Below, piece by piece: positions 22,997 through 48,724 of a stretch of 64,000 nucleotides of DNA. The notes below the pieces were generated by a model, which was given only the letters and a program-made list of their open reading frames with translations, was not told where the DNA came from and searched no databases. Where the stretch lies: NCBI GenBank assembly GCA_964394185.1, contig CAYMWM010000003.1, positions 1,193 to 65,192 of the forward strand. Reading direction: 5' to 3'. The stretch comes from an uncultured Smithella sp. Its GTDB lineage: Bacteria; Desulfobacterota; Syntrophia; Syntrophales; Smithellaceae. Position numbers and translations under genes: made by a program. How positions within the stretch are numbered: position 1 is the first letter of the stretch; every line of letters begins with the position of its first letter.

Positions 22997-23776
22997 ATGC
23001 CCAAGATTGTTAATCATGATGAATACCGGCAGGAACTGCTGGAGAAGTCTTTTCATTTATTTACCCGCAAGGGCTATACTAATATAAACATGAAAGAAAT
23101 TGCCGCTGAAATCGGTGTATCCACCGGTACTCTCTATCATTATTTCCCTTCCAAAGAAAATATGCTTGCCGAGATGATTTCCTGGATAGGCCAGGAAAAC
23201 ACCGAAGAATATATCAAACGAACAAGTTCGGTCGAAAGCATCAGCGACCGTTTTGATATGATTGTTGATTACTGGAAAGAAAAGGGCAAGCTGTATGAAT
23301 GCATCCTGCTTCTGGCCTTCGACATGTACCGCAATACGGATATTGAACACTGGAAACCGCTCTATGACGCTTTTGCTGAACGCTACACGGCCGGTATGTC
23401 GGAGAGGCTCAATATCTCCCGCCAGTTTGCCCGTTCCATATTCATTTATTTTCTCGGACTTTCCTTTCACGCCATTGCTACCGGCAGCGACACCGATGAA
23501 TACAACAGGCAAGTGGATTTCCTCGATGTCATATTCAGACCGTTGATTGTTGATGCCGGACAGGACATGGGTAAAGCGACTCGGAAATTCAGGGAAGTTT
23601 ACAGAACATTTCTCGCCAATTTGCCGGTTGTTAAAAAGGAAGCCATTGAAAAGACAATGGAAAATTCACAGACGGAAAAAACCGGAAAAAAGCTTAAAAA
23701 ATCCAAAACAAAAATAAATAAATCAGCATTGAACAAGTCGAATAAAAAACAATATTCGGTAAAGGAGGCACCATGA
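22997..23776 (+). CDS. TetR/AcrR-family transcriptional regulator with Lys-rich C-terminal tail
   Basis: N-terminal HTH LFTRKGYTNINMKEIAAEIGVSTGTLYHYFPSKE. The ATG at 22997 follows AGGAAAGG; the track ORF starts at GTG 22988. Confidence 0.85.
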   Translation: MPKIVNHDEYRQELLEKSFHLFTRKGYTNINMKEIAAEIGVSTGTLYHYFPSKENMLAEMISWIGQENTEEYIKRTSSVESISDRFDMIVDYWKEKGKLYECILLLAFDMYRNTDIEHWKPLYDAFAERYTAGMSERLNISRQFARSIFIYFLGLSFHAIATGSDTDEYNRQVDFLDVIFRPLIVDAGQDMGKATRKFREVYRTFLANLPVVKKEAIEKTMENSQTEKTGKKLKKSKTKINKSALNKSNKKQYSVKEAP

Positions 23777-25014
23777 ATAAAAGCCTGGATGAATTATTTG
23801 TTTACCCGAAGGAACTGGTTGATGAAGAATCGAAGCGGATTATTCATCTGGTCGGGCAATGGGCGAATAAGGAAATTATTTCCAAACGTCAGGAGTACCG
23901 GGAAAATTACGAAAAGCTCTTTATCGAAAAGAGAAAATCCCTTAATCTTGCTATTGGTTTACAGAGGCTGACTTTACCGGAGGAACATGGAGGCTTCGGC
24001 TGGAACAGTCCCGCTAATGCTCCCGGTATCGTTTCCATCCTTGCCGAAATCGGACGGGCGGATGCCGCTATAGGCGTTGTCTCCGCCGTCAAATATACTA
24101 TATTTGCTGCAATCAGCATGGCACCCCATCTGGATAAAAAGCTGTGCGATGCGCTGGCACCGATTTATTGCGCCGAAGAGTTAAAAACGCCTTCCCTCAT
24201 CCTGCCAGGTTCGGGTAATATCGGGCAGGATACATCCCTGTTTTTAGGCAGGTCGATTCTCGCCACGGCTGAACCGGAAGGAGAAGGTTATGCGGTCAAT
24301 GGAAAGAATCTCAGGCCTTTAAACAGCGGCGCCGTGGCCGACCTCTTTTGCGTGGTATGCGCGGACAAACTGGGCAGGCCGTGCATCGCTTTGGTTCCCG
24401 GCGATGATCCAAATATCATCCGTGGTAAAACGCTTCTGGAAACCGGTTTAAACGCCAGCGCCAATGCCGGTGTAAGTTTCAATAATGTCAGAATCCCCCA
24501 ACCCCATGTTATTGCCCGCGAAGGCGTCGTCGAAGAAATCTACACCTGGCTGAATTTATTGCTCGGCGGTGTAAGTGTCGGCGCCGGAATGAACTTTTTT
24601 GAAATAGTGAGCGACTGGTCGGAAACCAGAACGATCAAGGGCGGATATATGATGAAGGAAAATCCTCTCTGCGCTTCTGTCCTGGCCGATGTGGCCGACG
24701 AGATTTTTACCGCAAGACTGCTCCTTTACAATCTGGCGCACATTATGTCCAAGCCGGATGACTGGGGATACAGCGGCTCGCAGCGGGTCTATACCTTTGC
24801 GCAGATCATTGGTTCGCAGGTGCAGCAGAAAGTCATCAGGGCAATCAACAGAGGAATGGAACTGATGGGTTCAGCCGGCTATTCCAAAGAGTGGCACGTG
24901 GAAAAACACTGGCGTGACGTCAAAACCATCCAGTCGTACTTATGCGGAGTCGGCGCTGAGGCGCCGGTGAAAATGGATACCGCGCGGTTTTTCTTTGACT
25001 GCAAAGAGATTTAA
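23773..25014 (+). CDS. Acyl-CoA dehydrogenase-family protein lacking the canonical C-terminal YEG(T/S) catalytic-Glu motif
   Basis: ACAD-length protein ending ..EKHWRDVKTIQSYLCGVGAEAPVKMDTARFFF. Overlaps the TetR stop (ATGA). Confidence 0.8.
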   Translation: MNKSLDELFVYPKELVDEESKRIIHLVGQWANKEIISKRQEYRENYEKLFIEKRKSLNLAIGLQRLTLPEEHGGFGWNSPANAPGIVSILAEIGRADAAIGVVSAVKYTIFAAISMAPHLDKKLCDALAPIYCAEELKTPSLILPGSGNIGQDTSLFLGRSILATAEPEGEGYAVNGKNLRPLNSGAVADLFCVVCADKLGRPCIALVPGDDPNIIRGKTLLETGLNASANAGVSFNNVRIPQPHVIAREGVVEEIYTWLNLLLGGVSVGAGMNFFEIVSDWSETRTIKGGYMMKENPLCASVLADVADEIFTARLLLYNLAHIMSKPDDWGYSGSQRVYTFAQIIGSQVQQKVIRAINRGMELMGSAGYSKEWHVEKHWRDVKTIQSYLCGVGAEAPVKMDTARFFFDCKEI

Positions 25015-25030
25015 TAAGGAGGCCAACACG

Positions 25031-26311
25031 ATGAAAAACTTCGATGAATTCTCAAAACAGGAAGAATACATATCCCCAATGGATAAACACCTCCGTAGTG
25101 CGCTAAGAAACTGGGCAGACAAAGAAGTCATACCCTTCAGGCGTCAATACGATGAAGACTGGAAAGATCATCACATCATCGAACCGGCCTTTGACAAACT
25201 TATGGGAAACAAAGGTCTCGGAATTCAAAAAGCTTTATTCCCGCCGGAGCTAGGCGGTTGGGGAATCGGTCATTCCGATTACGCCTTCACGGTTGCCTGT
25301 GCGCTGGGAGAAGAGGTGGGAAGGGCGGATACCGCCATGGCTGTAGCTTTTATGGTTACTTACTGGCCTCTCACTACAATCCTTGTCGAGCCTCACGTCA
25401 ACTGGCGTCTGGCCAAAGAGTTCGCGCCGATGTTTTGCAATGCCGAAAAGGCGGTTTTCGCAGCCAATGCCATGACGGAGCCTCAGGGCGGAGCAGATAT
25501 CGAGAATATGGAGATATTAGGCGGCAAGACCATCCGTACCACTGCGCGCCTCGATGGTGACGAATGGGTACTCAACGGCCACAAACTCTGGCCGACCAAT
25601 ACCGGCGGTGTGGCCAAGCTCTTCTGCGTGCCCTGTACAACCAAACCAGGTTCAAACGATCCCAATGATTTTGCATTGATATTTGTACCCGCCGACGCCA
25701 AAGGAGTAACCCAGGGAGGAGCTTACGAAAAGGCCGGTATGGCCGCAGACAAGAACGGCGACATCTGGTTTGAAGATGTCAGGGTGCCCAGCTGGTACCG
25801 TGCTCATGGTCCGGGTATCGACGCGCAGGTCTTTCGCGAAATCATTCCATGGGGACTGGTGGGCAGCATGGGATTCCTGTGTGGCGCCATGTTCAATCTT
25901 TATGAAATTCTCTATGAATTTGTTTCGACAAGAACCTACAAAAACAGACCGTTAAAGGAGGACGATTGCATTGCCGGTATTATCGGCAGGATTGCCGGCG
26001 ACATTGATATCTGCCGGATTCTGTCCTATGAAGCTGCAAAAATGTGCGACAGGCGCAACAAACCTTACGGATATCCGATATATTCCGATGAGGTAGTTTG
26101 CAAGATGCGCAACCTCAAGGATTTCGTTTCCGATAGAGCGGTGGATATTTTCGGCAAGACCATGGACGTATTAGGTGCGTATGGAGCCGATCGGGATTAT
26201 GATATCGAAAAGCACTGGCGCGATATCAAAATCATTCAGTTATGGATGGGCGGCAAGCAACTCTGTCAGATGGAAGCAGCCCGGTATTTCTTCAATTGCA
26301 AGACATTATAG
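25031..26311 (+). CDS. Acyl-CoA dehydrogenase-family protein, paralogue of 23773-25014, also without the YEG(T/S) motif
   Basis: TEPQGGADI (ACAD signature-like) and C-terminal EKHWRDIKIIQLWMGGKQLCQMEAARYFF. The ATG at 25031 is preceded by AAGGAGG; the track ORF starts upstream at 24995. Confidence 0.8.
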   Translation: MKNFDEFSKQEEYISPMDKHLRSALRNWADKEVIPFRRQYDEDWKDHHIIEPAFDKLMGNKGLGIQKALFPPELGGWGIGHSDYAFTVACALGEEVGRADTAMAVAFMVTYWPLTTILVEPHVNWRLAKEFAPMFCNAEKAVFAANAMTEPQGGADIENMEILGGKTIRTTARLDGDEWVLNGHKLWPTNTGGVAKLFCVPCTTKPGSNDPNDFALIFVPADAKGVTQGGAYEKAGMAADKNGDIWFEDVRVPSWYRAHGPGIDAQVFREIIPWGLVGSMGFLCGAMFNLYEILYEFVSTRTYKNRPLKEDDCIAGIIGRIAGDIDICRILSYEAAKMCDRRNKPYGYPIYSDEVVCKMRNLKDFVSDRAVDIFGKTMDVLGAYGADRDYDIEKHWRDIKIIQLWMGGKQLCQMEAARYFFNCKTL

Positions 26312-26322
26312 GAGAGCAAATC

Positions 26323-26760
26323 ATGGAAGAAGCCAACAAGGGAGTCATTGACTTAACCGACAGAGTGCTTAAAGAACTTCTCAAAAAGCCCGGTTTTAAA
26401 GAAGGCGTCAGAACAGTGCTGCAGAATATTGATCCGGATTCCAGCCGCAGACTGGTCAGAACGATGATGTGGCAGGATCCGGAGTTTTTTCTCGGATTGC
26501 TCGGCGCAGTTCCCTCTATCGTTAATTCCCTTGCGCAGGGAACGGATGAAATGCTTACTCAGCTCAACGAAAAATTTTCTCCGCAGCTGCTTCATGATTT
26601 TATGAAGTCGATTTTTTTGTCGCTGGATAAAGATACACTGGAGAACATTGTCCGCAATGGAAAAATTCTGGCAACAAAATTATGGATTGTAGCGGAAGAA
26701 ACATACAATGAACAAAACGCAGCCAATAGCATTACGGGGGGAAAAGAACATGGAAAATAA
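26323..26760 (+). CDS. Hypothetical helical protein, member 1 of a local three-gene paralogue family
   Basis: The ATG at 26323 follows GGAGAG. Shares the pattern ..NIDPD..LV..MWQ(D/E)PE..L..LG(A/S)(V/I)P..VNS.. ..LNEKFS..LL.D.. with the next ORF. Confidence 0.6.
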   Translation: MEEANKGVIDLTDRVLKELLKKPGFKEGVRTVLQNIDPDSSRRLVRTMMWQDPEFFLGLLGAVPSIVNSLAQGTDEMLTQLNEKFSPQLLHDFMKSIFLSLDKDTLENIVRNGKILATKLWIVAEETYNEQNAANSITGGKEHGK

Positions 26761-27391
26761 CGCCGCAATGCCCGCCGCAGGCGGAGTAATGAAAGAAGTG
26801 TTGAGTACACCCTTTGTCAAAGATTTGATTCGCCTCAATCTGCAGAACATCAAACCGGAGAAAACGCATCCGCTCGTCAATACGCTTATCTGGCAGGAAC
26901 CGGAAGTTATTTTATCTGTTTTGGGTTCGATTCCTCCCGTTGTCAATTCCTGTACCGGCGCTCTGGCAGAAGCGGGAAAGCAACTCAATGAGAAATTTTC
27001 ATCGGAACTGCTCCGGGATTATGTCGGCAGCATTCTGAAGGATATCGATACGGAAGCATTGAAAGGTCTGGTTGAAGCTTATGTCGCTCTGGGGAAAAAT
27101 CTCTGGGACGCTTCCCCCGAATTCAGGGAGATGGTCGGCAAAGCATTAACTCAGGATGCACCGCCGCTCGTCGGCAAAGGAATCAGTTCGGCCTGTCGCT
27201 TTGTCAACGACGTCAGCAGGGAAGACCCGCAGGTGGTAAGCCGGTTTGTTTCGGATGTCGTGAAAAATATCGACGGCGAAGAATTTAAGGATGCGACCCA
27301 TACAATTGCCAACGCGTTTTTGGATCAGAAGCTGCATTTAATTTCCTGGACATGGCAGTTACTGCGCAAAAGAATGAAAAGAAGAAAGTAG
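26750..27391 (+). CDS. Hypothetical helical protein, member 2 of the local paralogue family
   Basis: Aligns with member 1 (LQNIKPEKTHPLVNTLIWQEPEVILSVLGSIPPVVNS..LNEKFSSELLRDY). The start at 26750 overlaps the member 1 stop by 11 nt. Confidence 0.6.
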   Translation: MENNAAMPAAGGVMKEVLSTPFVKDLIRLNLQNIKPEKTHPLVNTLIWQEPEVILSVLGSIPPVVNSCTGALAEAGKQLNEKFSSELLRDYVGSILKDIDTEALKGLVEAYVALGKNLWDASPEFREMVGKALTQDAPPLVGKGISSACRFVNDVSREDPQVVSRFVSDVVKNIDGEEFKDATHTIANAFLDQKLHLISWTWQLLRKRMKRRK

Positions 27392-27418
27392 TTATTAACA
27401 TGAATGGAGGCACGTTCC

Positions 27419-28651
27419 ATGAATGATGTTGAAAAACAGATTCAAACCGATCCCGCCGCCAAAGTAATAGGCGAAATTATCTGGAGATTTGCCAAAACAC
27501 CTCCGGCAAGAAATCTGGTTATGTCCGTTGTTCGTGCTGCGCTGAAGGACTGGTCGGGTGACAGCAGATTTAGGGAACACATATCAGCAAACCTGGAAAA
27601 GACCATTGATAATGTCCTTTCTCAGAGAGGAAATAACGAAAACAAAATTGCCGGAGATGCAAGTTACGCGGAAAGCCTTCGTCCAATTGTACGTGATTTG
27701 GTCGAAAACATTGATTTTGGCGAAATAAAGGAAGCAGCAGACTTTCACAAAGAAAACATCGGGGCCGCTGTCATGATGATCAATGAGGAGCTCTGGCGTT
27801 ATCCGGCCAAGGTCATTTGTTTGTTGTCACTGCTTCCTGCCGCCGCGAACATGACTGTGTCGGCGGCCAAGGAAACCCTGACGCCAATGAACAGGCTGGC
27901 GCCGGATCTGCTGGCCGATGTGGTTTTTTCTCTGGTTGATGATATTGACGGCAAAAATATCGGTGAACTGATTAATGAACTAAGTGAACTTGTTCGTAAA
28001 ATTCATACCGGCAGCACGCTTTTGGGCGAACCGGGCAAACCTCAGCTGCCCAACTCTTTAAATCGTCTGACAGGTGAAGTCATCAGCACGATTGATATCA
28101 ATCTGTTGCTGAAATCCAGAAAGCTTTTGGCGGAAATCAAGGAAGTCTCGCTGAAATCCTTCATTGACCAGCTGGAACTAAGCCCCGAACTTTCCAGTGA
28201 ATTTTTCCAGGATCATTTTCTTTCTATAGTGGCGTTTATCAGAAACTGGAGCCGCAAAGCCGACGCCTTTGAGCGTCTGTTTTCCGATGAAGACATTGCT
28301 CGTGAATTTGCTAAAGGTATGGGCGAGATTGACGCCCAGGAAGTGGCTAGTACGATCAGCATGTTGTGCGGCATTGTGAATCGTGTGCGTGCTGTTACGC
28401 CGGGTGTTATACGCAATACCCTGTCGCAGACGATAAACGCGATGGACGCGGACGAAGCCGGTGAGACGGTGCGCTGGCTTACCGAGGATATCGTGGAATC
28501 TCTTAAACCGGTGGCTTCCGAGGTACTGCCCCCTCTTATCAGAGGATTGGCGGACCTTTTAAGACCGGATCCCAACAATGGTTCCAAAGAAATTCAGGAA
28601 GCGCTTGCCTATTTTAATAACGCAATTGACGGGAAGGAGGCACCTGTATGA
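27419..28651 (+). CDS. Hypothetical helical repeat protein, member 3 (about three copies of the module)
   Basis: Contains the related segment NEELWRYPAKVICLLSLLPAAANM..MNRLAPDLLADVVFSLVDDIDGKNI and recurrent x-(I/M)-D-x3-(hydrophobic) motifs. The ATG at 27419 follows GGAGG. Confidence 0.6.
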   Translation: MNDVEKQIQTDPAAKVIGEIIWRFAKTPPARNLVMSVVRAALKDWSGDSRFREHISANLEKTIDNVLSQRGNNENKIAGDASYAESLRPIVRDLVENIDFGEIKEAADFHKENIGAAVMMINEELWRYPAKVICLLSLLPAAANMTVSAAKETLTPMNRLAPDLLADVVFSLVDDIDGKNIGELINELSELVRKIHTGSTLLGEPGKPQLPNSLNRLTGEVISTIDINLLLKSRKLLAEIKEVSLKSFIDQLELSPELSSEFFQDHFLSIVAFIRNWSRKADAFERLFSDEDIAREFAKGMGEIDAQEVASTISMLCGIVNRVRAVTPGVIRNTLSQTINAMDADEAGETVRWLTEDIVESLKPVASEVLPPLIRGLADLLRPDPNNGSKEIQEALAYFNNAIDGKEAPV

Positions 28652-29796
28652 TGAAGGAATTTATTGAGGCCTCCACGGCTCTCAACAACAAGCATGTAAA
28701 CCAGTGGAAGAAAAAAGGAAAAAAAGTTGTCGGTTATACCTGTTCCTATGTGCCCGATGAAATCTTTCACGCGGCGGGTATTCTGCCATTTAGAATCCGC
28801 GGATTCGGCGCTACCGAAAATACAATCGGGGACACATACTTTGGCCCCTTCATTTGCAGTCTTCCCAAGTGCATGCTGCAACTGGCCGGTGAAGGGAAAT
28901 TTAATTTTCTGGATGGCGCGATCATCACACCCGGTTGCGATTCAATGAGACGGCTCGATGAGTGCTGGCGCAAAGCCGGTAGTGATATGCCGGGTGTTAT
29001 ACCCCCATTCTTTTTTCATTACGGCGTTCCTCATAAGTATGAGGACTATACCATCAAGTGGTTTACGGATGAAACCAAGCGTCTGATTGCGGCGGTTCAA
29101 GAACATTTTAAAGTTGAAATAACCGAGGCTGATCTCAAGGAGTCCATCAGTGTTTATAATTACAGCAGAAAACTCCTTGAAAGATTTGACGCACTGCGCA
29201 CGATGGATAATCCGCCGTTCGGCGGCGGAGAAGCGCTAGCGGTCATTCTTGCCGGCACGACCATGCCCCGGGAGAATTACAACACCCTTTTGGGGAAATT
29301 CCTTGCCGATGCTCAAAAAGCTCCCGGAATAAAGGATCGTGTACGATTGATGCTTGTCGGCAGCGCCAATGATGACATCGGATTGGTTCGGGTGATGGAA
29401 GGATCAAAGGCGCTTGTGGTTGCCGATAATCTTTGTTTCGGGTCCCGTTTTTACACCGACCGGGTTGGCGAAGACGGCGATCCGGTTTTGGAACTGTCCA
29501 AACGCTATCTGGGGCACAATGATTGTCCCCGCATGTATGGCGATTATCAGAGAAGATTGAACATACTGGAACAGAAGGTCAAAAAAGCAAAAATTGACGG
29601 TATCGTTCTGCAGAACATCCGCTTCTGCGATCTTCACGGCGCGGAAAACGGCATCTTTGAACGGGACCTGGAAGCCAAAGGAATACCCTGCATGCGTCTC
29701 GAACGGGAATATGGTCCTTTGGTGGAGACGGGAAGAATGAAAATGCGCGTCGATGCTTTTATTGAGCGAATACAGCAGAGGAGGAAAGCAGCATGA
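28648..29796 (+). CDS. HGD-D family subunit, BcrC/BzdN/HgdB-like (small subunit) of an ATP-dependent reductase/dehydratase
   Basis: GYTCSYVPDEIFHAAGILPFRI (characteristic N-terminal C-x-Y-x-P-x-E motif) and conserved Cys in ITPGCDSMRRL and IRFCDLHG. 382 aa. Confidence 0.8.
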   Translation: MMKEFIEASTALNNKHVNQWKKKGKKVVGYTCSYVPDEIFHAAGILPFRIRGFGATENTIGDTYFGPFICSLPKCMLQLAGEGKFNFLDGAIITPGCDSMRRLDECWRKAGSDMPGVIPPFFFHYGVPHKYEDYTIKWFTDETKRLIAAVQEHFKVEITEADLKESISVYNYSRKLLERFDALRTMDNPPFGGGEALAVILAGTTMPRENYNTLLGKFLADAQKAPGIKDRVRLMLVGSANDDIGLVRVMEGSKALVVADNLCFGSRFYTDRVGEDGDPVLELSKRYLGHNDCPRMYGDYQRRLNILEQKVKKAKIDGIVLQNIRFCDLHGAENGIFERDLEAKGIPCMRLEREYGPLVETGRMKMRVDAFIERIQQRRKAA

Positions 29797-31199
29797 GAAA
29801 GGAAACCAGAGAATATAAATTTGACTGGATGATGTGGACCACCTTTGCGTCAGGTGCCAGATTGAAAAGCGGAACTCAAAAAGAATATAATGCGAGCTTG
29901 AAATATATTCCTTATTTCAGCCGGATTATCGATGTCCTGCTCAGTGCGGGAGAACCGGGCACGAAGTTTATCGAGATCTGCGCCAAGTACATGGAAAATC
30001 TGACTTTTGCGAAAGAGAAGGGTAAAAAGACAGCCGTCACAACCTTCTGTTTCTCACCCGCCATTTTTTACGCCATGGATATCGTGCCGATCTGCCTGGA
30101 AGTCCTCTCCGTGATGATGACTTTTGTCTATAAAAGAGGAACGGCTGAATTTTTGGATTATTGCAACGAAGCGGGCTTTACAGAAACATCCTGTTCTGCC
30201 CAGCGCGGTTCTATCGGCGCTTATCTGGCAGGTATCGGTACGGATGTGGACATGTTCGTGATGGATACGCCGGGGGTTTGTGATACCAACGCCAATGCTT
30301 TCTCTTTTGCCTCGGCTTATTTGAACAAACCATTCTTTCAACTGGATATGCCTCCGGATCTCACAGGGCAGCGTTCCAATGAATATCATCGTGAGGACTT
30401 TAAATCACTCATCTGCTTTTTGGAAGAACAGACAGGGAAAAAACTTGATTCTGAACGCTTGAGGGCAAGTCTTCGGGAACTCGCCAGACAGGATGAGATT
30501 ATTGCCGAACTGGAGGATCTGGCAAGAATGATACCGAATCCCCGGCCTGTTTCCTACAACCTGATGTTGTACGCTTCGCGGTTTCTTTTTGCCAGTATGC
30601 CGGAGTGTACAGAGGTGCTTGAAGCTATGTTAAAAGTCGCCAGGAAAAACGCCGCGAATAACATTTCCGGATTAAGCAGTGGAAAAGAAAAACTTCGGGC
30701 TTTTTTCTGCTACATCGACCATTACGCCCAGAACATGCAGTTCTGGAAGATGCTCGACGGCAATGGCATCTGCTATCAGGGCAATATCCTCAGTCATTTT
30801 TGGTCTCATAATTCGCCTTGTGTTGCTCATTATAATAAGGAAGAAGCGTCCTATACGATTGATACAAAAGATCTGGATTCGATGATTGACAGTCTGGGTA
30901 TGATCAATTCCCGCATGCCTATGATCAAATCCATCCGCGGACCCTACGACGCCCCCAATATGTGGCTGGAAGATACCCTGGGATTGGCGAAACTCTACAG
31001 CGCAGACCTTATTGTTTACAATGGAACACCGGGGTGCCGCAACACTTGGGGAATGGTGAAACTTCTGGCTCGCGATACCGAAAAGGCCGGCTATCCGACG
31101 TATATTATGTATGCCGACGCCTTTGATGAGCGCGTGCAGTCCTGGGAAGCGACAGAAGAACGGTTCATGGAATTTCTTAAGGTAAGGAGGCTTGTATAA
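29793..31199 (+). CDS. HGD-D family subunit, BcrB/BzdO/HgdA-like (large subunit)
   Basis: 468 aa. TFCFSPAIFYAMDIVPICLE, TSCSAQRG, PGVCDTNANAF and PGCRNTWG Cys-containing segments typical of the family. ATGA overlap upstream. Confidence 0.8.
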   Translation: MRKETREYKFDWMMWTTFASGARLKSGTQKEYNASLKYIPYFSRIIDVLLSAGEPGTKFIEICAKYMENLTFAKEKGKKTAVTTFCFSPAIFYAMDIVPICLEVLSVMMTFVYKRGTAEFLDYCNEAGFTETSCSAQRGSIGAYLAGIGTDVDMFVMDTPGVCDTNANAFSFASAYLNKPFFQLDMPPDLTGQRSNEYHREDFKSLICFLEEQTGKKLDSERLRASLRELARQDEIIAELEDLARMIPNPRPVSYNLMLYASRFLFASMPECTEVLEAMLKVARKNAANNISGLSSGKEKLRAFFCYIDHYAQNMQFWKMLDGNGICYQGNILSHFWSHNSPCVAHYNKEEASYTIDTKDLDSMIDSLGMINSRMPMIKSIRGPYDAPNMWLEDTLGLAKLYSADLIVYNGTPGCRNTWGMVKLLARDTEKAGYPTYIMYADAFDERVQSWEATEERFMEFLKVRRLV

Positions 31200-31990
31200 T
31201 GTTTGCAGCGGGATGCGATGTTGGTTCATTAACGTCCAAGGCCGTCATCATGAAGGACGGCAAGATCGTTGAATCCGTCATTATAAAATCAAAGGCACGA
31301 CCCTGGGAGTCGGCCGATGAGGTGATGAATATTGTACTATCGCGAGCCAACCTGACGATGCAGGATATCAAATACTGTGTCGGTACCGGCTACGGCCGCG
31401 ACAAGATATCTTTTATTAACGAGGCTGTCTCCGAGATTGCCTGCCACGGCATGGGAGCCCGCTGGCTGGTTCCATCCGTAAGAACGGTTATTGATATAGG
31501 TGGTCAGGACTGCAAGGCCCTGCGTCTGGATGACAAAGGCAATATGGTGAAGTTCATTACCAACGACAAATGCGCTTCGGGAACCGGACGGTTTCTCGAA
31601 GTGATGGCAAAAGTCATGCATCTGAATCTTGACGAACTGGGAGAGATGTCGGCGCGTTCCAGACAGCCCGTTACCTTTGCTTCGGCCTGTACGGTGTGGG
31701 CACAGGCTGACGTTATACAGCATTTGAATGACAAGGTGCCCATCGAAGACATTGCCGCCGGGGTCAATAACGCCATGGCCAGCCGTATGTCCACTCTCGC
31801 CAACAACATCGGTCTGGAGAGAGATGTGTGCATGACAGGCGGTGTAGCCAAAAACACTGGTGTGGTAAACGCGCTGGAAAAGCACCTTGGCATAAGGATT
31901 AAAAGGATTCGCCGCGAAGACCCGCAGCTTGCCGGCGCCATCGGCGCGGCGCTCTTTGCTGCGGAAAAAGCAAATGGAGGTGCTAAATGA
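31199..31990 (+). CDS. BcrAD/BadFG/HgdC-family (ASKHA) electron-activating ATPase, copy 1
   Basis: GCDVGSLTSKAV, IDIGGQDCK, DKCASGTGRFLE and TGGVAKN motifs. 263 aa. Confidence 0.85.
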   Translation: MFAAGCDVGSLTSKAVIMKDGKIVESVIIKSKARPWESADEVMNIVLSRANLTMQDIKYCVGTGYGRDKISFINEAVSEIACHGMGARWLVPSVRTVIDIGGQDCKALRLDDKGNMVKFITNDKCASGTGRFLEVMAKVMHLNLDELGEMSARSRQPVTFASACTVWAQADVIQHLNDKVPIEDIAAGVNNAMASRMSTLANNIGLERDVCMTGGVAKNTGVVNALEKHLGIRIKRIRREDPQLAGAIGAALFAAEKANGGAK

Positions 31991-32772
31991 TTACAGCGGG
32001 TTGTGATATCGGTTCTCTTACGGCCAAGGCCATTATTATGAAAGATGGAAAAATCATCGCCTCGGAAGTCATCCTTGCATCGGCTCAGCCTGAAAAATCG
32101 GCAACCGAAGTGATGAAACGTGCTATTGAAAAAGCCGGCATCAAAATGGAAGACATCGGATACTGCACGGGTACCGGCTACGGCCGTAAACACATCCCTT
32201 TCATGAATTCCGAAGAATCCGAAATTGCCTGCCATGCCAGAGGTGCGGTCTGGCAGGTACCTTCGGCTCGCACGGTGGTGGATATCGGCGGACAGGACGC
32301 CAAGGCTATCCGCGTGGATGAAAAAGGGAATGTCGAACGTTATGTTTACAACGACAAATGTGCTTCGGGCACAGGACGGTTCCTGGAGATTATCGCTGAT
32401 GCGTTGGACATTAAGCTGGAAGATTTGGGTTCCCTATCGGAAAAGGCAAAGGAAAAACTGACCCTTTCCAATCAATGCGTGGTTTTTGCTGAAACGGAAA
32501 TTATTTCCCTGGTGAACGATGGAAAAGAAATTGCCGACATTATCAATGCCCTGCATCAGGCCGTTGCCAACCGGGCGGCGTCATTGGCCAGAGGTATTCT
32601 TGTCGAGCCCGATGCCGTTATGACGGGCGGTGTAGCGAAAAATTCCGGCATGTTCGCGGCACTGGAAAGGGCTCTGGGTGTGAAACTGCACAAAGTGGAG
32701 AATCCCCAGATAAACGGGGCTCTGGGAGCGGCTCTTTTTGCAGCCGATAAAGTAAACGGTTCAGGGAAGTAG
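31987..32772 (+). CDS. BcrAD/BadFG/HgdC-family (ASKHA) electron-activating ATPase, copy 2
   Basis: GCDIGSLTAKAI, DIGGQDAK, DKCASGTGRFLE and TGGVAKN. 261 aa. ATGA overlap with copy 1. Confidence 0.85.
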   Translation: MITAGCDIGSLTAKAIIMKDGKIIASEVILASAQPEKSATEVMKRAIEKAGIKMEDIGYCTGTGYGRKHIPFMNSEESEIACHARGAVWQVPSARTVVDIGGQDAKAIRVDEKGNVERYVYNDKCASGTGRFLEIIADALDIKLEDLGSLSEKAKEKLTLSNQCVVFAETEIISLVNDGKEIADIINALHQAVANRAASLARGILVEPDAVMTGGVAKNSGMFAALERALGVKLHKVENPQINGALGAALFAADKVNGSGK

Positions 32773-44737: not shown

Positions 44738-44763
44738 TTTTGCAACAAGGAGGAAGTAAATCA

Positions 44764-46155
44764 TTGAAGCCGACCCCTAAACCTTTCGAATATCTCAAGT
44801 GGAGCGCTGATTTCCTGAATCTGGGCTATTACGTCAGTGTTTTCCCCTCTCTGGCTTACTGGTCGATGAAGTTAACCAGGCCTCTCTATGTTCAGGGGGA
44901 GAATTTTTTTAACCGCAAGGTGCGCTGGTCGTTTCTCACCATGGGTGCCGGCGTTGCTCCACCTGAAGACATTCGTGCCTACCGTTATGGAGTAAGGGCT
45001 TTTGTTGATAATTTTAAAAATGCCATGAAGGCGAATGAGGATGGCAAGCCGGTTGTGTGGGTCGAATGGATACTGTCCTCCGAAATCGTCGGGGCCTTCG
45101 ATGCTGTAGCTTTCAACCCGGAAACGCTCAGCGTGTTCGGAAATATGTCCGGTAAGGACATACCGTCTATGTTGATAGAAGAAGCGGAAAGCAGAGGGTT
45201 TGCTTCCGAATATTGTTCTGCCATCAAAGTCACGGCGGGAGCCTACATGCTGGGACAAAGCCCGCAGCCTGCGGCAATAGTTGCAGGCTCTCATCCCTGT
45301 GATACGAATGTTTCCGCATATCAGAGTATTGCCCATCTTACGGGAGCACCGGTCTATTATTTTGATGCCCCCTACTGGAGGGACGAGGATTCCTATAATT
45401 ACTACGAAACAAGAATGTGGGATCTTGTCGCCTTTTTGGAAAAAAATCTTCACCAGAAAATCGACTGGGACAGGCTCAAGCAGATTGTGGATAATGAAAA
45501 CAAATTTAATTTTTATCTGCACGAAATCTGTGAGATGATGCGGGCCGTTCCTGCCCCGGCCAGCATGATTACGCTTGTTTTTGCCTGGATCGTGCGGGAA
45601 ATAGGTATCGGTGATTCCAACGGAACCGAGATGGCCAGACTCATGTATGAAAACACCAAAGACCGTTACAAAAACGGCAGGGGTGTTGTCAAAAAGGAAA
45701 ACATTCGCGTCTTATGGTGGAATCCGCCCATCGCTTTTTTCAGCTATGTTTTTAAGTGGATGGAAGATGAGTTTGGTGCCGTTGTTGTCAAAGATTTTAT
45801 TGGCGATGTTCAGGTGCCCCAGATTGATACCTCCACGGAAAAAACCATGATTCGCGGATTGGCGGAGAACCATCTCTTTCTGGCAATGGCCAGACAATGC
45901 CGTGGACCGGTGGAATTCATTATCGAGGAGTTGGAGCAGGCCATCGAAGAATATTCGCCAGACTGCCTGATTTTTGCCGGACACGCGGGTTGCAAACATG
46001 GCTGGGGCGTTATCGGCATTATCAAGGATGTACTGAAAAAGCGGGGCCTGCCGTCTTTATTTATGAACATGGACATCATGGATCAGAGGCACGCCACAGA
46101 AGATGATATCAAAGGCTGGATAAGGGAATTTTTCAGGAGCAATGGATTCGCATGA
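44764..46155 (+). CDS. HGD-D family large (HgdA/BcrB-like) subunit, third set
   Basis: EYCSAIKVTAG, SHPCDTNVSAY and GHAGCKHGWG Cys segments. The TTG at 44764 follows AAGGAGGA; the track uses the TTG at 44740. Confidence 0.75.
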   Translation: MKPTPKPFEYLKWSADFLNLGYYVSVFPSLAYWSMKLTRPLYVQGENFFNRKVRWSFLTMGAGVAPPEDIRAYRYGVRAFVDNFKNAMKANEDGKPVVWVEWILSSEIVGAFDAVAFNPETLSVFGNMSGKDIPSMLIEEAESRGFASEYCSAIKVTAGAYMLGQSPQPAAIVAGSHPCDTNVSAYQSIAHLTGAPVYYFDAPYWRDEDSYNYYETRMWDLVAFLEKNLHQKIDWDRLKQIVDNENKFNFYLHEICEMMRAVPAPASMITLVFAWIVREIGIGDSNGTEMARLMYENTKDRYKNGRGVVKKENIRVLWWNPPIAFFSYVFKWMEDEFGAVVVKDFIGDVQVPQIDTSTEKTMIRGLAENHLFLAMARQCRGPVEFIIEELEQAIEEYSPDCLIFAGHAGCKHGWGVIGIIKDVLKKRGLPSLFMNMDIMDQRHATEDDIKGWIREFFRSNGFA

Positions 46156-47339
46156 AAACAATACTTGATAAAACAAAAGAAATCTCCTCTTCGACTTCCA
46201 ACCATTATCTGGACGAAGCCAAAAAACAGGGAAAGGGCATTATCGGATATTTTTGCTCTTATATGCCTGAAGAAATCATTCATGCCGCCGGATTTATTCC
46301 GTACCGCATGCGCGCGGTGAAAAGCAAGGGAACAACGAAAGCTGACGCTTATTATTCTTCAATCAATTGTACCTTTGTCAAACATTGCTTCAATAAGGCA
46401 TTAAACGGCGAATTTGATTTTCTTGACGGCGTGGTTTTTCTCAACGGCTGCGATCATTCCCGGCGTATGTATGATAACTGGCGTTATGCCGGAATCAGAC
46501 ATTCATTCCTGCATATGTTTTTTGTGCCTCATGTTATCAGCGATAGTGCTTATGAACATTTCACTCTTGAGTGCAAAAAGCTCAAGTCATCTCTGGAAAA
46601 TCATTTTAAGGTGTCCATTAGCGACGATACACTCAGGAAATCAATCGGTCTTTATAACGAGAAGCGGCGGCTTTTGACGGAGATTTATGCCTTGAGAAAG
46701 AAAAAAGATGTTCCCGCCAAAGCCAGCGAGATTTTGGGCGTTTTACTGGCAATCACGGCGGTACCTCTCGAACTGGCCTTAGAAATACTGACAGAAGTAA
46801 AAGATTTTCTTAAAGGGCGTGTCGTTTCCAAACCCGGGGAACCACGTCTTTTTCTCTCAGGAGGTTGTATCGAGGAGATAGAGCATCTGGAACTCATCGA
46901 AGATTGCGGCGCTTCCATTGTGGCCGATAACATCTGCCTGGGCACGCGTCATTTTCTGGGTGAAGTGGAGCTGGAAGGAGATCCCTGGCAGGCTGTCGCT
47001 CATCGATACTTAAATCATCTTTCCTGCCCGCGAATGATGGGCGAATTTAACCGGAGATTTGATTATTTAATGAATATTAAAGATGAATACAGCATTGATG
47101 GCATCATCATTGAAAAATTGAAGTTTTGTGATTTATGGGGAGGGGAAATATATCTCTATCGCGCAGAATCAAAAAACAAAAATATTCCTTTGCTGTTCAT
47201 GGAGAGGGAAGTATATGGAGGCGGCACCGGACAGATCAAAACAAGGGTACAGGCTTTTCTGGAAAAGATTAAGAATAAGCAAACGACGGATGAGAGTTTA
47301 GTTCAGGCGGCCGGAGCTGATTATAGACCAAAATTATGA
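46152..47339 (+). CDS. HGD-D family small (HgdB/BcrC-like) subunit, third set
   Basis: GYFCSYMPEEIIHAAGFIPYRM N-terminal motif, LNGCDHSRRM and LKFCDLWG. 395 aa. Confidence 0.8.
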   Translation: MKTILDKTKEISSSTSNHYLDEAKKQGKGIIGYFCSYMPEEIIHAAGFIPYRMRAVKSKGTTKADAYYSSINCTFVKHCFNKALNGEFDFLDGVVFLNGCDHSRRMYDNWRYAGIRHSFLHMFFVPHVISDSAYEHFTLECKKLKSSLENHFKVSISDDTLRKSIGLYNEKRRLLTEIYALRKKKDVPAKASEILGVLLAITAVPLELALEILTEVKDFLKGRVVSKPGEPRLFLSGGCIEEIEHLELIEDCGASIVADNICLGTRHFLGEVELEGDPWQAVAHRYLNHLSCPRMMGEFNRRFDYLMNIKDEYSIDGIIIEKLKFCDLWGGEIYLYRAESKNKNIPLLFMEREVYGGGTGQIKTRVQAFLEKIKNKQTTDESLVQAAGADYRPKL

Positions 47340-47359: not shown

Positions 47360-48724
47360 ATGAACAAAGCAGGAAGTGATTACGAATACATAATCGTCGG
47401 TACGGGACCCGGAGGCGGTCCTGTGGCCAGAGAGTTAGCCAGAGCGGGCAAAAAAGTGCTCATGGTGGAAAAAGGAGATTACCACAAAAAGTTTCTTGGT
47501 CTTCCCTTTGGTATCCGATTATTGGAACGTTATATGCTTTTTGCAAGGTCCTTGGAAGGCGTAATTATCGAGCGCGGCATTACGGTCGGCGGTTCTTCCA
47601 TGGTTTACCAGTCCAACGTCATGGAACCTCCCAAAAAGTTGATAGACAATATGGGAATAGATTTCAGCCCGGAGGCAAAGGAACTCAAAAGTGAAATCGG
47701 TGTCGAGGTCCTGCCGGAGCGCTTTTACCGGAACAACAAGGGGCTGTCCCGGATGCTGGAAGCGGCCGAAAAGATGGGTATACCCTTCCGGGAGCAGGAA
47801 AAATTCGTTCATGCCGATAAGTGCAAACTGGGCTGCGACTGGTGCATGCTGGGTTGTCCGGAAAATGCCCGCTGGACAACAAGAGAGCATGTGGAAGAGG
47901 CAAAGTCATACGGCGCCGGACTCATTTATAATTCGCCCGTCCACAATGTCCTTTTTAATGCTGGTAAAACAAAGGCAACCGGGGTGCAGTTGAGTAACGG
48001 TACCGTCATCAACGGTGATAACGTCATTCTCGCCGCCGGAGGAATCGGTTCTCCGGCCATTCTCTTAAGATCGGGAATAAAAAAATTGGGAACACAGGAC
48101 GTAGGGACGAGATTCTTCATGGATCCCATGAACATCATGCTGGGTTACAGTAAAGATCCTGACGGTGGATTGTGGGGGATACAGACCTTCACGCACGCCA
48201 TTGAATCTATGGCTCAGAGCGAAGGCTTTATGATCGGGAACTGTTCCGCCTTCGGAACATGGACGGTTTTATCTTTCTTCCGCTTGAAAACAGCAAAAGA
48301 AAATCTGCCCAAATTCCCTATCATGAGAAGGGGGATGGGATTATTTCTGAAACTCTCCGACGAAGCGCGCGGTCAGATTTATCCAAATGAAAAAACCAGC
48401 AAGCCGTTCACGGAAGTCGATGAGAAGAAGCTGAAGAAAGGAACGGATATTATGCGGGAGATCATTATAAAATCGGGTGGTGATCCCAAAACGATTTCCA
48501 TTCTCAAGTGGGCAGGCGGTCATCCCGGCGGGACGCTTGCTATGGGGCAGGCGGTCAACAGGGATTTCTCAACCGAGATTGAGAATCTCTATGTCTGCGA
48601 CGGCAGCACCATGCCCGTGTCGCCCGGCGCTCCGCCTTCGCTTTCCATTTGTTCCATGTCAAAGCTTCTGGGAAAGATGCTTTTGGGCAAGGTGAAGGCT
48701 GAAGAACGGTTCGTAAATAAATAA
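47360..48724 (+). CDS. GMC-family FAD-dependent oxidoreductase
   Basis: YIIVGTGPGGGPVARELA..KVLMVEKG (FAD ADP-binding motif) and C-terminal LYVCDGSTMPVSPGAPPSLSI, typical of the GMC C-terminal domain. Confidence 0.8.
   Translation: MNKAGSDYEYIIVGTGPGGGPVARELARAGKKVLMVEKGDYHKKFLGLPFGIRLLERYMLFARSLEGVIIERGITVGGSSMVYQSNVMEPPKKLIDNMGIDFSPEAKELKSEIGVEVLPERFYRNNKGLSRMLEAAEKMGIPFREQEKFVHADKCKLGCDWCMLGCPENARWTTREHVEEAKSYGAGLIYNSPVHNVLFNAGKTKATGVQLSNGTVINGDNVILAAGGIGSPAILLRSGIKKLGTQDVGTRFFMDPMNIMLGYSKDPDGGLWGIQTFTHAIESMAQSEGFMIGNCSAFGTWTVLSFFRLKTAKENLPKFPIMRRGMGLFLKLSDEARGQIYPNEKTSKPFTEVDEKKLKKGTDIMREIIIKSGGDPKTISILKWAGGHPGGTLAMGQAVNRDFSTEIENLYVCDGSTMPVSPGAPPSLSICSMSKLLGKMLLGKVKAEERFVNK

Follow-up and report, generated by a model that had tools for sequence, protein, structure and literature searches.

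Three genes between an acyl-CoA dehydrogenase pair and a reductase block

The 64,000-nucleotide stretch of DNA analysed here (the window; positions 1,193 to 65,192 of contig CAYMWM010000003.1, assembly GCA_964394185.1, from an uncultured Smithella sp.) encodes three helical proteins, termed A, B and C, in consecutive open reading frames (ORFs) on the + strand, which are flanked by two acyl-CoA dehydrogenase (ACAD)-like genes on one side and by a gene pair for HGD-D proteins on the other. Comparison with related loci suggests that these proteins are not a single trio but two sets of companions, with C belonging to the reductase block and A together with B belonging to the ACAD pair. The genes and features concerned are the following:

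ACAD1, 23773-25014, + strand: protein with Pfam ACAD domains, putative partner of A/B
ACAD2, 24995-26311, + strand: protein with Pfam ACAD domains, putative partner of A/B
Protein A, 26323..26760, + strand: 145 amino acids (aa), half-module of an undescribed helical family, partner of B, linked to the ACAD pair
Protein B, 26750..27391, + strand: 213 aa, a complete module followed by a C-terminal tail
C-terminal tail of B, 27329..27388, + strand: rich in Trp, Arg and Lys, ending in LHLISWTWQLLRKRMKRRK
Protein C, 27404..28651, + strand: 410 aa if started at the more probable 27419, otherwise 415 aa, with a reduced N-terminal module and an expanded core module
Bzd-type reductase/dehydratase block, 28648..32772, + strand: HGD-D small subunit s1, HGD-D large subunit l1 and two BcrAD-type ATPases (Pfam HGD-D, BcrAD_BadFG), putative partner of C

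All three ORFs lie where a first-pass annotation, made from the sequence alone, had placed them. The start of B overlaps the end of A by 11 nt, and a 4-nt overlap joins the stop of C to the ATG of s1. A starts at 26323, preceded by GGAGAG; a longer ORF from 26242 is disfavoured, and several orthologues possess no other usable start than the equivalent Met. The start of B at 26750 yields 213 aa, i.e. the length of most B orthologues among those listed. For C, position 27419 has a better ribosome-binding site (GGAGG, 9-13 nt upstream) than 27404, and the resulting 410 aa are also the commoner length among homologues. Ratios of non-synonymous to synonymous substitution of 0.07-0.15 against orthologues across the three proteins (A 0.07-0.15, B 0.10-0.13) show that all three are genuine genes kept under purifying selection.

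C accompanies one subfamily of Bzd-type enzymes

The genomic surroundings of C were compared in 85 loci annotated against the window proteins by simple ORF calling and BLAST labels, all of them from metagenome-assembled genomes (MAGs), of which 83 contain a C gene. Where at least 900 bp of sequence are available downstream of C (80 loci), the next gene on the same strand is the s1 orthologue in 79, and in 53 of those 79 the two genes overlap by 4 bp. After s1 follow l1, two BcrAD ATPases and usually genes for a CdhC fragment and for CooC. Co-occurrence of the family with HGD-D/BcrAD genes, a check proposed in the first-pass annotation, is thus very strong. The members of the C subfamily can be recognized by a gene position directly upstream of an s1-type HGD-D small subunit and by four motifs that are kept family-wide (DFGE, YPAK, PDLLxD and RKxHTGSxLxGExG); the window C occupies this position and carries all four.

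The association also holds at the level of whole genomes. Among 301 genomes sampled evenly from the phylum, an s1 homologue of at least 49% identity and a full C occur in exactly the same 8 genomes, 5 of which also have B; the roughly 30 sampled genomes in which the best s1 homologue reaches at most 43% have no C, save for one fragment at a contig end (G212). The genome of the window itself has at least three s-type paralogues and only one C, which, together with the co-occurrence across the 301 genomes, indicates that C is specific to one enzyme subfamily and no general accessory of HGD-D proteins. Judged by gene order and co-occurrence, C is therefore a specific companion of a single Bzd-type subfamily of ATP-driven iron-sulphur (Fe-S) reductases/dehydratases.

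Among solved structures, s1 is closest to BzdN (8s02_B, E 5e-40), followed by the beta subunit of a 2-hydroxyacyl-CoA dehydratase (HAD; 3o3m_B) and by MbdN (9g87), and is about equally near to all three. The large subunit l1 is very divergent, its best matches in the PDB being a 'Dehydratase family protein' (7yyl/6eno, E 1.5e-8) and the alpha subunit of 2-hydroxyisocaproyl-CoA dehydratase, and no BzdO-type large-subunit chain in the PDB passes E 0.001. Several s1-type homologues contain a single in-frame stop, i.e. TGA in G115:C34:203770-204885 (- strand) and in G072 and TAA or TAG in others, which could reflect selenocysteine, pseudogenes or assembly errors. One further protein, P0228 (543 aa, annotated with PF06050), is a long C fused to the downstream s1; its HGD-D domain was rejected as a true architecture and is an artefact, either a frameshift or a mis-assembly, which still confirms the adjacency of C and s1.

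A and B accompany the ACAD pair

A and B occur in 25 of the loci, and orthologues of ACAD1 and ACAD2 are present in every one of these. In four genomes (L060, L062, L065, L093) A and B are fused to one protein of 360 aa. Upstream of C, 36 of 61 loci have a gene for a GMC oxidoreductase, often along with a TetR gene, and 20 of the 61 have ACAD1-ACAD2-A-B; in several loci a TetR gene splits ACAD1-ACAD2-A-B from the block that begins with C and s1. On this genomic evidence, A and B act as one unit and are companions of a putatively heteromeric ACAD-like flavoprotein pair.

C proteins of 400-435 aa are found mostly with A/B, and long C proteins of ~490 aa mostly with the GMC oxidoreductase. That A/B might stand in for an N-terminal module missing from short C was rejected as a rule, because six loci pair A/B with a C of 468-488 aa. 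In the window, a GMC oxidoreductase gene lies at 47360-48724, ~19 kb downstream and after a further HGD-D pair (44740-47339), i.e. not upstream of C as in most other lineages. ACAD1 gives no match to the Pfam middle domain and diverges faster than ACAD2 (median identity in distant loci 56% versus 80%); by analogy, it resembles the degenerate subunit of heteromeric ACADs.

The two gene blocks diverge separately

The identities of the proteins to their window counterparts follow the same division. The identity of A/B is strongly correlated with that of ACAD1/2 (Pearson r 0.84-0.96) and weakly with that of s1/l1 (0.37-0.57), whereas C follows s1, l1 and the ATPase (0.92-0.97) and is weakly correlated with the ACADs (0.48-0.52); as the loci come from related genomes, these correlations are descriptive contrasts. 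The division is most conspicuous in six loci of other Smithella MAGs (L069, L071, L073, L074, L077 and L082), in which the ACADs are 83-92% and A/B 69-86% identical to those of the window, as against only 31-32% for C, 56-60% for s1 and 51-52% for l1. In these six loci the C-s1-l1-ATPase block is deeply divergent throughout (31-64%) and the large subunit is duplicated (s1 l1 l1), which, from the sequences, looks like block replacement or recombination between paralogous operons.

Synteny, the natural A-B fusions, the TetR genes between the blocks and the separately tracking divergence thus all point to two partnerships. The first-pass annotation had treated A, B and C as one trio serving one enzyme system; the association with the enzyme genes stands, but the single unit does not, since C goes with the reductase block and A/B with the ACAD pair. 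In distant loci, C has a median identity to the window of 35%, as against 58% for s1, 66% for the first ATPase and 53-66% for the catalytic and ATPase subunits in general; such faster evolution of C than of the adjoining enzymes is, as a pattern of sequence divergence, typical of accessory subunits.

A helical family of modular build

The proteins A, B and C are genuine, consist of helices throughout and form a family that has not been described and that matches no known fold. In Pfam-A and NCBIfam, their best scores are 12-14 bits against cut-offs of 25-425, so that no family can be assigned, and 36 diverse members of the C family gave nothing consistent in Pfam, only four unrelated single matches with E values between 1e-4 and 6e-3. 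Neither HGD-D (PF06050) nor BcrAD (PF01869) is matched in Pfam by A, B or C, so that a kinship with the catalytic or ATPase subunits is not supported. Profile searches against PDB sequences reach E 0.047-0.066 at best. An AlphaFold2 model of C, based on an alignment of 66 sequences, has 19 helices with a mean predicted local distance difference test score (pLDDT) of 73 and a predicted template modelling score (pTM) of 0.57, the core from ~110 to 400 lying at pLDDT 73-90. The best Foldseek match of this only moderately confident model (pLDDT 73) in the PDB has E 4.2, with a template modelling (TM) score of at most 0.11, and the best in BFVD has E 1.5; no significant match was obtained to known helical-repeat or lipid-binding folds (HEAT/ARM/TPR, 14-3-3, saposin, apolipoprotein-like). 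In line with the first-pass annotation, in which the family had not been recognized, no known domain family or fold was matched. Searches of the literature on Smithella genomics, the structure of class I benzoyl-CoA reductase (BCR), the thn operon and limonene enrichment turned up no reference to proteins of this kind.

The three proteins are related to each other, as had also been proposed from the first reading. BLASTP aligns A with B at 39% identity over 122 aa (E 7e-29) and B with C at 27% over 93 aa (E 6e-7), with A versus C insignificant. A hidden Markov model (HMM) of B matches A at 1e-34 and C at 2.6e-15, and the HMM of C matches B at 1.8e-12 and A at 3.4e-8, with nothing better than E 0.18 among the remaining window proteins; for the HGD-D and BcrAD proteins of the window, E is at least 0.4 throughout. 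A kinship of A/B/C with the hydrophobic N-terminal extensions of other HGD-D large subunits was excluded for want of any HMM similarity. In hhalign, the profiles of B and C align collinearly (B 40-190 with C 118-358; probability 97.1%, E 6e-11), with two insertions in C, and the N-terminal region of long (~490 aa) C is itself matched by the B profile (probability 98.6%, E 6.5e-16), i.e. it represents a second B-like module.

As judged from these alignments, the family consists of a repeated B-like module of roughly 150-200 residues, of which A is a half, B is one module with a tail, the window C is a reduced plus an expanded module and long C is two modules in tandem. All three proteins can be aligned over a core marked by the motif W-x-x-P-(E/A)-x-hydrophobic(6)-P-x-x-x-N, after which come (N/x)-x-x-x-P-x-L-L-x-D and an I-D-x-x-x helix cap; the N-terminal module of long C shows this pattern once more. 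The conserved core motif is also where each of A, B and C has its most hydrophobic segment of 19 residues (Kyte-Doolittle 1.4-1.8), with a central Pro; the N-termini of all three are polar. Each of the seven short 'xID' motifs that had been quoted in the first-pass annotation was found. The pattern has 8 occurrences against 0.58 expected in shuffled sequences, a contrast that is indicative only, as the pattern was defined post hoc. In the AlphaFold2 model of C these motifs sit at helix-helix junctions, and several of their Asp residues (D99, D305, D343) belong to the best conserved positions in the family.

Nearly all B orthologues have a Trp/Arg/Lys tail comparable to that of the window B (SWTWQLLRKRMKRRK and variants), and it recurs in the A-B fusions and in distant B-like proteins of 226 aa. 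There are no cysteines in A and two each in B and C, none of which is kept across the wider family, which bears out the earlier statement that Cys motifs are absent. Binding of a metal or cluster through C134, C317, H196 and H266 of C was considered and rejected: close homologues keep these residues with few or no exceptions, but the wider family keeps neither the cysteines nor H266. The lack of any family-wide Cys or His pattern makes a metal cofactor in A, B and C improbable, and their sequences give no sign of a metal or nucleotide cofactor at all.

Possible roles of A, B and C

How, then, could three such proteins serve the enzymes next to which they are encoded? We give about even odds to a model in which A, B and C serve a two-part enzyme system as dedicated accessory subunits and are not free-standing enzymes. 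C would then bind to the reductase core and A-B to the ACAD heteromer and, because the modules are homologous to one another, they might also associate mutually, such that the flavoprotein would be docked onto the reductase and two consecutive steps on a CoA ester would be joined by an adaptor or scaffold. The Trp/Arg/Lys tail of B might in addition tether this assembly to the membrane or to an acidic protein surface. In its complete form, i.e. a cofactor-less helical adaptor that joins a flavin dehydrogenase (the ACAD pair or, with long C, the GMC oxidoreductase) and a Bzd-type reductase in a possibly membrane-tethered supercomplex, the proposal is doubtful. If it were true, it would represent a new class I BCR/HAD architecture, in which a single bulky CoA ester undergoes an oxidation and, coupled to it, a radical reduction or dehydration driven by ATP, and related B-like modules would serve other flavoenzyme complexes, e.g. 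of the GlcDEF-like type.

Several points weigh against accessory subunits that bridge the two enzymes. Many loci carry the reductase block with a long C and a GMC oxidoreductase and have no A/B, so that bridging to ACADs is not a universal role of C. The strictly conserved polar loops of C (DFGE, YPAK and HTGSxLxGExG) would fit ligand binding or catalysis equally well. The tail of B has a helical hydrophobic moment of only 0.24-0.33 and is thus not a classical amphipathic helix. On the structural side, the model of C is of moderate quality only, and an AlphaFold2 model of a natural A-B fusion (L065) has a pLDDT of 38.7 and is unusable for the A:B interface; MAFFT does not put A-only and B-only rows on their proper halves simultaneously, so that the A half of the underlying alignment consisted of only 4 sequences. 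The loci are mutually related and not independent samples, and therefore both counts and correlations overstate the statistical weight. Finally, physical contact of A, B or C with the enzymes is something that we infer from the sequences, and the same applies to the stoichiometric structural, scaffold or substrate-carrier role suggested in the first-pass annotation.

An alternative, which we regard as unlikely, is that A, B and C are assembly or maturation chaperones, which would bind transiently to the cofactor-free enzymes for insertion of Fe-S clusters or flavin adenine dinucleotide (FAD), similar to nitrogenase gamma/NafY-type proteins and together with the products of the CdhC-fragment and CooC genes further downstream. 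A CooC-type metallochaperone ATPase and an ACS-fragment protein are indeed usual in the neighbourhood, A/B/C have no cofactor motifs of their own, and Bzd-type enzymes hold complex [8Fe-9S] and [4Fe-4S] clusters (PMC11971306). The low confidence of the A/B model could also mean that these proteins fold only upon binding, although the alignment is shallow as well. However, no protein of this kind is needed for the maturation of characterized Bzd and HAD enzymes (PMC11971306), and the translational coupling of C to s1 and its first position in the operon suggest that the two are made in equal amounts. Moreover, A/B track the flavoprotein pair, which according to Pfam has no Fe-S clusters.

Quite unlikely, in our view, is a role in binding or carrying a bulky hydrophobic substrate, in which the helical bundles would enclose the acyl part of a lipophilic CoA ester or of a free acid and pass it between the membrane, the flavoprotein and the reductase. 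The conserved hydrophobic core segment with its central Pro and the Trp- and base-rich tail of B would suit such a function. So would two points of background: the hosts belong to lineages that are generally known mostly for the degradation of fatty acids or hydrocarbons, and heteromeric ACAD pairs take bulky substrates, as in the mycobacterial FadE26-27 type. Saposin-type lipid binders do appear among the Foldseek matches, but these are insignificant (E above 4), and no lipid-binding family was matched. A carrier would also not require a one-to-one link to one enzyme subfamily, nor separate co-evolution with two enzymes.

Very unlikely is that C is a new cofactor-independent enzyme, e.g. an isomerase, a hydratase or a lyase, which would catalyse the step directly ahead of or following that of the reductase, with A and B as degenerate non-catalytic relatives: its invariant polar loop residues (D99-F-G-E, P129-x-K131, P162-D-x-x-x-D167, R193 and G198-S) and its 55% identity between Smithella and Spirochaetota, which is far above that of a typical linker protein, would be in accord with an enzyme, but C resembles no enzyme fold or family and evolves about twice as fast as the neighbouring enzymes, and A and B, which are without the C-specific HTGS loop, are equally constrained.

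Relation to known enzyme systems

Class I BCRs and HADs are model radical enzymes, and the described Bzd, Bcr and Mbd enzymes consist of four subunits, or of two transient dimers, and have no helical fifth protein (PMC11971306). The block in the window shares with the Bzd type of class I BCR (BzdNOPQ; BzdNO structures 8S02/8S1T/8S2R) the genes for small HGD-D, large HGD-D and two BcrAD ATPases in this order; unlike the Bzd type, it has a very divergent l1 and a helical protein that is translationally coupled ahead of s1, an arrangement common to 79 of the 80 loci. 2-Hydroxyacyl-CoA dehydratase operons that include an acyl-CoA dehydrogenase (the hadAIBC-acdB-etfBA type) combine a single activator ATPase with a homomeric ACAD and Etf and are not known to encode helical proteins. 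They resemble the window in that an HGD-D enzyme and an ACAD are encoded together and take consecutive steps on one CoA ester, whereas the window has two ATPases, a putatively heteromeric ACAD-like pair and A/B/C, and no Etf among its annotated genes. Heteromeric (alpha2beta2) acyl-CoA dehydrogenases of the FadE26-FadE27 type act in the degradation of steroid side chains. Like the putative pair of the window, they are encoded by two adjacent paralogous ACAD genes, one of which is more degenerate; we know of no helical partner proteins for ACADs of this type.

A whole reductase subfamily, known only from uncultured organisms of several phyla, always carries an extra helical protein, and a related pair always accompanies a putatively heteromeric ACAD. 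These helical proteins are probably unrecognized extra parts of the reductase/dehydrogenase enzyme system. If they are true subunits or adaptors, expressing or annotating these enzymes without A/B/C may fail. In addition, A/B/C provide a precise genomic marker for an uncharacterized anaerobic pathway in syntrophic hydrocarbon and fatty-acid degraders.

Distribution of the family

A profile search of a whole library of 1.84 billion protein representatives yielded 381 clusters at E <= 1e-3. For B there are 174 homologues, which are hypothetical proteins throughout those listed, and the genome of the window has a single A/B/C trio. Relatives of C are encoded by 87 stretches in GTDB species genomes; the 80 that were kept all come from MAGs of uncultured anaerobes. 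Their hosts include Smithella and other Syntrophales, Spirochaetota/Leptospirales, Bacillota (Syntrophomonadaceae), Myxococcota, Desulfobacterales, Pseudomonadota and Omnitrophota. There is no cultured isolate among these 80 C-bearing species loci and, with the C family confined to MAGs in the GTDB species set, there is no laboratory organism for genetics.

A distant B-like protein of 226-255 aa (L104:8692-9459, - strand; L105:42-722; L106:8001-8681) occurs in another family of the phylum and has only 15 homologues in a set of 5.8 billion proteins. The B profile matches it over the C-terminal half of B, including the Trp-plus-basic tail (E 1e-11 to 2e-7). It is encoded by the first gene of a GlcD/GlcF/GlcE-like FAD-oxidase operon, which is oriented divergently from TetR-FixC-FixX-EtfAB genes. 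With a B-like module heading such an operon as well, modules of this type seem to accompany at least two kinds of multi-subunit flavoenzyme.

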